Source: Shigella phage ESh23. From it: DNA of 40,156 bases. Below the pieces are notes generated by a model. The model worked only from the letters and a program-made list of their open reading frames with translations, ran no database searches and was not told the origin of the DNA. The stretch lies in the sequence record ON528733. One strand, given 5' to 3'. Positions 24,696 to 26,478 of this stretch are shown piece after piece; position 1 is the stretch's first letter, and every line of letters starts with the position of its first letter. A program made the position numbers and the translations under genes.

Positions 24696-26399
24696 ATGTC
24701 ATATGAAGACCAAGAGCAGGACGATAGCGTCTTCCTCTACCACACCGAGTGTCCAGACTGCGGGTCTTCGGATGCCAATGGTGTTTACTCAGACGGACAC
24801 ATGTATTGCTTTGCGTGTGACCCGTCAGTCGCTTGGAAGAAGGGCGACATGGAATTGACAGAAGGTTACACGCCTTCAGGAGGTAAGAAGCAAGTGAGTA
24901 ACCTGTTAACTTGGGGTGAGAACTCAGGACGTTACGTCCCTCTCCCGGCTCGTGGACTATCGGCTGACATCTGCAAGAAGTACAGCTACTGGGTAGGCAT
25001 GATGCAGGGCAAGATGGTACAGATTGCGGACTACTACGACAGGTCAGGGACCAAGGTCGGACAGAAGGTTCGTGACGCAGACAAGAACTTCACAGCCATC
25101 GGTAGCGTGAAGAACGACCTGCTGTTCGGCTCTCAGCTCTGGTCCGGCGGCAAGAAGATTGTCATAACCGAAGGCGAGATTGACTGCCTGTCGGTAGCTC
25201 AGGTGCAGGACGGTAAGTATCCGGTGGTATCTCTCCCGTTAGGCGCGAAGTCTGCGAAGAAGACACTTGCAGCGAACCTTGAGTACCTCGACCAGTTCGA
25301 AGAGATTATCCTGATGTTCGACATGGATGAGCCGGGACGCGAGGCTGTAGAGAAAGGTGCTCCAGTCCTCCCCGCTGGCAAAGTTAAAGTCGCGTTCATC
25401 AATGGGTATAAAGACGCCAACGCTGCACTTCAGGCCAAGGACTTCAGGGCTATTCAGGATGCAATCTGGAATGCTAAACCTTTCGTCCCGGCTGGGGTGG
25501 TGAGCGCCAAGTCTCTGAAGGACAGGACCCGCGAGGCAATGCTGAAGGCTGAGACTGAAGGTCTCCTCTTCTCGTCCTGTACCACACTCAACGCGATGAC
25601 CCTAGGTGCGCGGTCTGGTGAGCTTATCATGGTGACTTCAGGGTCAGGCATGGGTAAGTCCACCTTCGTGCGTCAGCTCCTCCTAGAGTGGGGCAGACAG
25701 GGCAAGCGTGTAGGCATGGCGATGCTGGAGGAAGCTGTTGAAGAGACAGTGCAGGACCTCATAGGTCTTGACAATAACGTCCGTCTCCGTCAGTCCAAAG
25801 AGCTGAAAGAGGCAATCCTTCAGGACGGTCGATTCGACGAATGGTATGACAAACTGTTCAACGACGATAAGTTCCACCTGTACGATTCATTTGCGGAGTC
25901 AGAAGAAGACACCCTGTTCGCCAAGCTAGGCTACATGGTTGATGGTCTGGACTGCGATGTTATATTGCTGGACCACATCTCAATCGTGGTGTCTGGCATG
26001 GAAGATAACTCAGATGAGCGTAAGACCATCGACCGAATCATGACCCGTCTCAAGAAGTTTGCCAAGACGAAGGGTGTGGTTGTCGTGGTCATCTGCCACC
26101 TGAAGAACCCGGAGAAAGGTAAGTCACATGAAGAAGGTAGACCAGTTTCGATTACTGACCTTAGAGGGTCTGGCGCTTTACGTCAGCTTTCTGATACTAT
26201 TATTGCCTTGGAGCGCAATCAGCAAGGTGATACTCCTAATGTCGTTCAGCTTCGTCTGCTTAAGTGTCGCTTTACGGGTGATACCGGGCTGGCTGGACAC
26301 CTTGAGTACAACAAGCTCACGGGCTGGCTCGAACCGACTATCCACACTGGTGGAGGCGGAGAAGAGGATAGCGGCTCGTGGGAAGACCAAGACTTCTAA
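24696..26399 (+). CDS. DNA primase/helicase (T7 gp4-like), 567 aa
   Basis: N-terminal zinc-binding CPDCGSSD...CFAC; TEGEID primase motif; helicase Walker A GSGMGKST; ICHLKNP; [28 protein letters not shown]. Confidence 0.97.
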
Positions 26400-26478
26400 C
26401 TGGCAGTCATTTGACGAGTGGCAAGAACTGAACAGACGTGACGTTGCCAACTATAAGAACTTTATGGAGGACCGATAG
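26128..26478 (+). CDS. alternative-frame ORF overlapping the 3' end of the primase-helicase gene (116 aa, two hydrophobic segments); uncertain
   Basis: ORF with upstream AAAGG SD; extends 79 nt beyond gp4 stop and ends on the GTG start of the next gene; may be a frame artefact. Confidence 0.25.

Follow-up and report, generated by a model that had tools for sequence, protein, structure and literature searches.

An overlapping homologue of T7 gene 4.2 in the primase/helicase gene of Shigella phage ESh23, probably a genuine overprinted gene of enterobacterial Studiervirinae

Introduction

Is the long open reading frame (ORF) that overlaps the 3′ end of the primase/helicase gene (gp4) of Shigella phage ESh23 (sequence record ON528733) a genuine overlapping gene or an artefact of the reading frame? 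Both answers were left standing by a sequence-only reading of the 40 156-nucleotide stretch of DNA analysed here (the window), which had pointed to an ORF of 116 codons out of frame with gp4. The T7-like phages offer precedents for such an arrangement: gene 4.1 overlaps gene 4 out of frame at its 5′ end, and gene 18.7, which encodes the o-spanin, is embedded in the +1 frame of gene 18.5. Like the ORF considered here, both begin at an internal start within a larger, conserved gene of the same strand and encode a small protein out of frame with it. A further overlapping gene of T7, gene 4.2, was predicted from the 1983 genome sequence.

Materials and methods

The comparison set comprised 80 gp4 loci from IMG/VR together with those of T7, SH4 and EP1, brought into a gp4 codon alignment; counts are given over 82 sequences. 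It contains 43 representatives at <95% nucleotide identity and 16 deep clades at <78% nucleotide identity. As outgroups we used Pseudomonas Pifdecavirus and Ghunavirus (∼70% gp4 amino-acid identity in the stretch), Vibrio VP4, Ralstonia WR2 and Pelagibacter and Prochlorococcus podoviruses. Expected numbers of stop codons in the +1 frame were obtained from a composition-matched null in which synonymous codons were shuffled within the region only, with the local excess of T at third codon positions (T3) retained; the shuffle was confined to the region because a wobble T or C cannot form a +1 stop. Synonymous rates in gp4 were scanned with a synplot-like procedure using 42 minimum-spanning-tree pairs and 25-codon windows.

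Results and discussion

Organization of the locus

The ORF and the elements of gp4 on which it depends are located as follows.

24696–26399, + strand: gp4 primase/helicase gene, the host frame (567 amino acids; phrog_239, E = 9.5e-230; annotated likewise in EP1 and SH4)
26128–26478, + strand: ORF, the gene 4.2 homologue (116 codons, ATG to TAG, +1 frame relative to gp4)
26127–26130, + strand: cATG formed by gp4 His478-Glu479 (CAT GAA), so that the ORF has its start only if the histidine codon is CAT and not CAC
26146–26208, + strand: hydrophobic segment 1 of the ORF product (about residues 7–27; Kyte–Doolittle 19-residue maximum of 2.06 at residues 9–27)
26218–26286, + strand: hydrophobic segment 2 (about residues 31–53; Kyte–Doolittle 19-residue maximum of 2.18 at residues 31–49)
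26400–26478, + strand: C-terminal extension past the gp4 stop (not conserved in relatives; SH4 lacks 36 nucleotides here)

The offset between the two start codons, (26128 − 24696) mod 3 = 1, places the ORF in the +1 frame of gp4. It spans this frame over the last 91 gp4 codons, shares 272 nucleotides with gp4 and extends 79 nucleotides beyond the gp4 stop (TAA, 26397–26399). The G of its own stop codon (TAG, 26476–26478) is the first base of the GTG (26478–26480) of a 177-residue ORF at 26478–27011. The surrounding genes are those of DNA metabolism, with the amidase and primase on one side and the DNA polymerase on the other. The ORF product begins with a basic N-terminus (MKK), followed by the two hydrophobic segments, which are joined by a short loop (SAISK), and by a basic tail that is the acidic C-terminus of gp4 read in the +1 frame. 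When re-read from the sequence, all of the facts stated in the sequence-only reading proved to be correct, namely the 116 codons, the ATG at 26128, the upstream AAAGG, the two hydrophobic stretches, the 79-nucleotide overrun and the TAG/GTG overlap.

Relationship to T7 gene 4.2

The window is that of a Kayfunavirus (Studiervirinae); over the 1.5 kb searched (25600–27100), its identity is 98.4% with Enterobacter phage EP1 and 94% with Citrobacter phage SH4. The equivalent ORF of SH4 is annotated as gp21.2 (104 amino acids; 78% identical), and such ORFs are listed as gp4.2-like in the paper that describes SH1–SH5 (PMC4925675). Relatives of T7 gene 4.2 are also annotated in T3 and K1F, as gp4.2, and in Yepe2, CR8 and Citrobacter phages SH3, SH4 and SH5. 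Gene finders usually skip the 4.2 ORF, and in EP1, the closest relative, it is left unannotated.

A BLASTP comparison of the ORF product with T7 gp4.2 gave an E value of 5e-14 with 51% identity over residues 1–70, a similarity that is partly forced by the conservation of gp4 (alternative-frame identity of 0.49 observed versus 0.41 in the null). The product also matches phrog_5140 (E = 2.7e-40 over residues 1–99) and the Pfam family DUF5480 (PF17576), for which its score of 28.9 bits exceeds the cut-off of 25, with residues 22–71 aligned to profile positions 1–50 of 71; T7 gp4.2 itself scores 167.8 bits. No other Pfam family appeared in a scan at E ≤ 1, NCBIfam gave no match to the product, and a profile search of the PDB returned chance matches only (E of about 0.9). 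Among 1.84 billion proteins searched, four word-indexed homologues and 11 representative clusters were found, with lengths of about 58–137 residues and all aligned from residue 1, and nothing pointed to a larger or free-standing relative.

In the codon alignment the ATG of the window and the ATG at position 12988 of T7 fall in one column, both being formed by the conserved His-Glu of the helicase HEEG motif. T7 gene 4.2 (NP_041978; 112 amino acids; 12988–13326) resembles the ORF in its +1 frame, in its start at the cATGa of the conserved gp4 His-Glu, in covering the last ∼91–93 codons of gene 4 and overrunning the stop (by 61 nucleotides in T7 and 79 here), and in its two hydrophobic segments. 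The two differ in the tail past the gp4 stop, which is unrelated, and in their promoters: T7 has φ4c inside gene 4, 317 nucleotides upstream of 4.2, and φ4.3 just after it, whereas the phage of the window has neither. By homology and position, the ORF is the Kayfunavirus orthologue of T7 gene 4.2, an already annotated gene and not a new one. The ORF itself is thus a known annotation, and nothing new in kind comes from finding 4.2 here.

Conservation of the start codon and open frame

The +1 open run of the ORF (99 codons) ranks third among those inside the genes of the window (153, 103, 99, 92, 91, 90 and so on), and in a gene-wide synonymous shuffle of gp4 the overlap was free of +1 stops in 3.5% of trials. 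From the single genome alone, the ORF is not clearly beyond chance; such statistics are too weak by themselves, and the case consequently rests on the comparison with relatives.

An ATG is present at the homologous position in 74 of the 82 sequences, and 71 of them (12 of the 16 deep clades) combine it with a full-length ORF of 91–144 residues that continues past the gp4 stop. The remainder include the Kluyvera Kvp1-like phages and Vibrio VP4, both with ACG at the start and four +1 stops, and a phage of the T7 clade (L049) with ACG and two +1 stops. The ORF is truncated to 54 residues in the Dickeya Katbat-like phages and measures only 67 residues in one further locus (L061), while two tips (L026 and L070) have ACG at the start in an otherwise intact frame.

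The frame is open far beyond the expectation of the composition-matched null. Over codons 477–540, four +1 stops were observed in the 16 clades versus 23.4 in the null (minimum of 14 in 1000 shuffles); over the whole overlap there were seven versus 28.3, and the 12 intact clades had none versus 17.2. In all 20 upstream control windows the observed stops were at or near the null. A second control was provided by an 89-codon +1 open run in gp5 of the window (27530–27797), which carries two to five stops in each of the 13 other alignable clades.

In gp4 of the window, the histidine at the start is the only one of eight encoded by CAT. This histidine is CAT in 14 of the 16 deep clades compared with 34% gene-wide (binomial P = 1.6e-5 with the clades taken as independent, which they are not fully, the residual codon match being 0.53 versus 0.44 in the null). 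In all six outgroups the ATG is absent, the +1 frame contains 2–8 stops and there is no T3 excess, although gp4 is conserved. The Pseudomonas, Vibrio and Ralstonia outgroups keep the gp4 His-Glu but with CAC, and in the two marine phages another residue takes the place of the histidine. Judged from these alignments, gp4 itself does without the ATG, the open +1 frame and the wobble T, features that co-occur in the enterobacterial lineage and vanish together where the ORF is broken.

Wobble composition and hydrophobicity

The wobble positions of gp4 coincide with the second codon positions of the ORF, and most of the overlap is unusually rich in T at these positions.

26131–26316, + strand: gp4 codons about 478–540 (0-based), with a T-rich wobble that forms the second codon position of the ORF (T3 of 0.50 versus 0.20 upstream in the window)

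The T3 value in the overlap lies ∼3.5 standard deviations above the genome mean of 0.255. Given the amino acids of gp4 and the upstream codon usage, 30 of 62 codons in the window have a wobble T where 13.9 are expected (z = 5.2). Across the relatives T3 is about 0.46 in the overlap and 0.27 upstream; the excess given the amino acids is present in all 12 ORF-bearing clades (z of 2.0–5.2) and falls to z = −0.6 in VP4 and 0.4 in the Kvp1-like phages. Codons whose second base is not T never make a +1 stop, and here too T3 is raised (0.45 versus 0.28), so that the avoidance of stops does not account for the excess.

The consequence for the +1 product is a mean Kyte–Doolittle value of +1.24 in the overlap, compared with −0.3 to −0.6 in other gp4 windows. 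In the aligned homologues L/S/P, V/A, F/S and I/T interchange freely through wobble T↔C changes, the two-segment hydrophobic pattern persists, and segment 1 is hydrophobic in every intact homologue. As judged by these comparisons with the nulls and the outgroups, selection in the enterobacterial Studiervirinae keeps the ATG (through CAT), the stop-free +1 frame and a T-rich wobble that gives hydrophobic residues.

To a known annotation the comparison makes a modest addition: across the enterobacterial Studiervirinae, but not in the outgroups, the start codon, the open frame and the hydrophobicity of the product bear consistent marks of selection. In the choice between a genuine overlapping gene and a frame artefact, the homology to T7 4.2 and the start, openness and hydrophobicity beyond the nulls, all absent in the outgroups, speak for the gene, and the synonymous rate of gp4, described below, speaks against it. 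On balance, we regard the ORF as the orthologue of T7 gene 4.2 and probably a genuine overprinted gene restricted to the enterobacterial Studiervirinae.

Synonymous variation

A suppression of synonymous variation at the 3′ end of gp4, proposed in the sequence-only reading as the mark of dual coding, is not seen in the hydrophobic part: over codons 477–540 the ratio of observed to expected synonymous changes in gp4 is 1.007 (z = 0.3). The ratio for the whole overlap is 0.948 (z = −2.0), and the final 27 codons alone show a reduction (0.71; z = −4.9). A normal synonymous rate and stop codons in the alternative frame of relatives had been named as signs of an artefact; the former is present over the hydrophobic part, whereas stops or a missing ATG are confined to a minority of relatives. 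Nor is constraint detected in the product itself, since the between-clade amino-acid identity and hydropathy-profile correlation of the alternative frame are no higher than in control windows when judged against within-region shuffles. This is because all windows are inflated by residual shared ancestry. At the level of single sites, a Gln codon CAA at gp4 codon 509, which gives the lysine of the ORF loop, is present in 15 of the 16 clades; it also occurs in VP4, which lacks the ORF, and was not counted in favour of constraint.

Only 11 of the 139 possible synonymous changes create a stop. Of the 139, 63 would turn a hydrophobic residue into a non-hydrophobic one, and such changes are evidently tolerated. 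The proposed signs of an artefact, the synonymous rate included, therefore have low power here, with so few stop-creating changes and a constraint that looks collective and not site-specific. We infer strong selection on the start and on the few changes that create stops, together with weak, collective selection of a codon-bias type on the wobble T. Under weak selection of this type, composition can change while the rate is hardly affected, and the free interchange of residues within a persisting two-segment pattern agrees with such a regime. What selection seems to maintain is thus an open frame, a start and bulk hydrophobicity, and not a particular sequence. The standard synonymous-rate test misses the signature of 4.2, which is a caution for screens for overlapping genes.

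The unsuppressed synonymous rate is nevertheless the main weakness of the case, and for this reason we retain, as an unlikely but not negligible alternative, that the ORF is an untranslated by-product. Some other pressure on the gp4 mRNA or DNA would then make the wobble positions T-rich, and a hydrophobic-looking ORF would come for free, its ATG arising from yet another codon that ends in T. Such an origin would fit the lack of sequence-level constraint on the +1 product and the statistical linkage of T3 enrichment, openness and CAT, which vanish together in the outgroups, the Kvp1-like phages and VP4. It does not account for the openness, as shuffles that keep the local codon composition expect 17–28 stops where 0–7 are seen, nor for CAT at the start in 14 of 16 clades, which exceeds even the local T3 of ∼0.46. 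No alternative role for a T-rich wobble is known here, and the gp4 of the outgroups works without one. The window does contain one other comparably T3-rich stretch, without an ORF (3748–4050, in a gp16-like gene, with +1 stops), which might be taken as a parallel case; its richness is explained by a Gly/Ala-rich protein with GGT and GCT codons, and the gp4 excess is not so explained.

Translation signals and the downstream junction

The signals from which the ORF and its neighbour might be expressed are listed below.

24619–24643, + strand: phage promoter, consensus CTWAACTATCACTATAGG, upstream of gp4 (PWM score of 25.4), the nearest possible source of mRNA for the ORF
26111–26119, + strand: Shine–Dalgarno-like sequence GGAGAAAGG, in which AAAGG (26115–26119) ends eight nucleotides before the ATG
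26466–26471, + strand: Shine–Dalgarno sequence GGAGGA, six nucleotides upstream of the GTG of the next gene (26478) and within the final codons of the ORF

In a PWM scan the next phage promoter after 24619 is at 27002, before gp5, and no promoter equivalent to T7 φ4c was found inside gp4, so that translation of the ORF would have to begin within the gp4 mRNA. All 16 deep clades share a GAGAARGG motif, as would be expected from its being encoded by the conserved gp4 residues Glu-Lys-Gly. The Shine–Dalgarno sequence of the ORF is modest and weaker than that of the neighbouring gene, and the start region is weakly structured (MFE of −7 kcal/mol; z = +1.15 versus shuffles).

Downstream, the intact homologues extend past the gp4 stop by 7–154 nucleotides, with tail sequences that are unrelated even among close relatives. 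The sequence-only reading had taken the TAGTG as a coupling of the ORF to the next gene. This ending is found in 9 of the 71 intact homologues, all of them close relatives, and in SH4 the next gene is not annotated as starting at the equivalent junction; in the window the next gene moreover has its own strong GGAGGA. The TAGTG junction is probably incidental and not a conserved feature.

The junction nevertheless bears on a second alternative, in which translation itself and not the peptide is selected, +1 ribosomes being delivered to the downstream gene or unfolding the mRNA for it. The exact ending of the ORF on the GTG, the fact that intact homologues always end beyond the gp4 stop and the lack of sequence-level constraint on the product would all agree with translational coupling. 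However, the stop/start overlap is restricted to the nine homologues, the next gene lies at varying distances, ribosomes translating gp4 already terminate 79 nucleotides upstream, the next gene can draw on its own Shine–Dalgarno sequence, and the T3 excess in codons that are irrelevant to stops points to selection on hydrophobic residues. We consider this explanation improbable. Phylogenetic inertia, that is, an ancestral chance ORF that has not yet been broken, draws on the codon identity shared between clades (0.53 versus 0.44 in the null) but is very hard to sustain when wobble positions are near saturation between clades (62–74% nucleotide identity), the +1 ORF of gp5 that served as a control has been interrupted in every other alignable clade and outgroups at a similar gp4 protein distance carry three to four stops.

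Predicted product and possible role

If the ORF is a gene, as we think probable, ribosomes would initiate inside the gp4 (class II) mRNA, aided by the modest Shine–Dalgarno sequence GGAGAAAGG and the weakly structured start region. The product would be a protein of ∼100 residues with an MKK N-terminus, two membrane-spanning hydrophobic segments with a short loop between them, and a basic tail, likely to take the form of an N-in/C-in hairpin in the inner membrane. Its function would depend on bulk properties (the hydrophobic hairpin and the basic tail) and not on specific residues. An AlphaFold2 model computed from a five-sequence alignment consists of one long helix and is of low confidence (pLDDT of 66; pTM of 0.22).

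The two hydropathy peaks above 2.0 may be compared with the two transmembrane segments of class II holins and pinholins. The likeness to these and to superinfection-exclusion proteins is one of architecture only, with a short, basic N-terminus ahead of two adjacent hydrophobic segments and a charged tail behind them in a protein of ∼100 residues. The ORF differs from such small two-transmembrane proteins in matching neither a holin nor any other named family in Pfam, PHROGs or NCBIfam. Identification of the product as a class II holin or pinholin was rejected, as there is no family match and the ORF lies outside the lysis cassette.

Gene 18.7 differs from gene 4.2 in having an established function and a lipobox signal, whereas no report of expression during infection or of function was found for 4.2; the literature search behind this statement covered Ribo-seq and proteomics reports of gp4.2 detected during infection, the supplements of the T7 proteomics paper falling outside it. 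The only expression on record is that of the T7 protein from a plasmid. The selection signature is a concrete reason to test the expression and function of gp4.2.

Since 4.2 has been lost or truncated several times, it appears to be an accessory, dispensable gene. Our best guess is a dispensable inner-membrane hairpin of low abundance that acts on the host, with a mechanism inferred from architecture only; more speculatively, it may be a membrane-acting factor of host takeover or exclusion. A fuller scenario, which we put forward tentatively and would rate as somewhat less than an even prospect, is that 4.2 encodes a membrane protein confined to one lineage that arose de novo by overprinting within the ancient helicase domain in the ancestor of the Studiervirinae infecting enterobacteria, has been kept almost entirely for its bulk hydrophobicity, open frame and start and not for the identity of its residues, and acts on host physiology. 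If true, it would be a clean natural example of a T-rich wobble seeding transmembrane proteins by overprinting.

A role in host physiology would be in line with the growth inhibition linked to the stringent response that is reported for cloned T7 Gp4.2: the protein inhibits the growth of E. coli in minimal medium, an effect that stringent-like RNAP alleles suppress (bioRxiv 10.64898/2026.01.27.700999). In the same plasmid screen 34 of 53 T7 proteins were toxic, so that the toxicity of Gp4.2 is unspecific, and no partner was identified for it (bioRxiv 10.64898/2026.01.27.700999). In an evolution experiment, a T7 line was recovered with a deletion that removes the C-terminus of 4.2 (PMC8923235).

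Lowered synonymous change at the gp4 C-terminus

Synonymous change is lowered in codons 540–567 of the primase/helicase gene gp4 (window ~26316..26396), with an observed/expected ratio of 0.71 (z = -4.9), and the gp4 protein itself is weakly conserved over these codons (34–55% identity). One possible cause is constraint on the basic tail of ORF 4.2, the homologue of T7 gene 4.2 in the +1 frame over the gp4 3' end. The lowered rate could also mark a nucleic-acid signal near the end of the gene or be a product of gappy alignment.

Apart from the part of gp4 overlapped by ORF 4.2, only one stretch in the window has a wobble T frequency (T at the third codon position) near 0.5:

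3748..4050, wobble-T-rich stretch (0.48–0.52) inside the gp16-like gene 2818..6714 (1298 aa)

Its +1 frame contains 1–3 stops. The encoded protein is Gly/Ala-rich and uses GGT/GCT codons, and the wobble T is thus accounted for by amino-acid composition.

ORF 4.2 is lost in the lineage of Kluyvera phage Kvp1-like phages (L033/L034), which has ACG at the start position, four stops and no wobble-T excess. An HNH endonuclease gene is annotated directly at the gp4 3' end in this lineage, and ORF 4.2 may have been erased through homing-endonuclease-associated sequence replacement.

Neighbouring features

The 5' end of gp4 also carries a +1-frame ORF:

24703..24858, + strand, ATG-start ORF, 51 aa

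By position it corresponds to T7/T3 gene 4.1. It has the same length as ORF21.1 of phage SH1 (51 aa) and ends where the 4B-type internal start of gp4 (Met52, ~24849) lies. No stop avoidance was seen in the +1 frame of the first 63 gp4 codons (seven stops versus 6.4 expected from synonymous codon shuffles; 12 deep clades).

Phage promoter-like motifs recur through the window:

6706, 12185, 16386, 19923, 21671, 22522, 24619, 27002, 31167, 33989, 34985 and 39453, + strand, CTWAACTATCACTATAGG, 12 copies

None of the 12 is a counterpart of T7 phi4c (within gene 4) or phi4.3 (directly after gene 4).

Downstream of gp4, the place of T7 genes 4.3/4.5/4.7 is taken by an ORF:

26478..27011, + strand, GTG-start ORF, 177 aa, phrog_18700

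Pfam and NCBIfam searches with this 177-residue protein gave no match. The annotated starts and lengths of its counterpart differ among relatives (133 aa in Citrobacter phage SH4, 194 aa in SH5).
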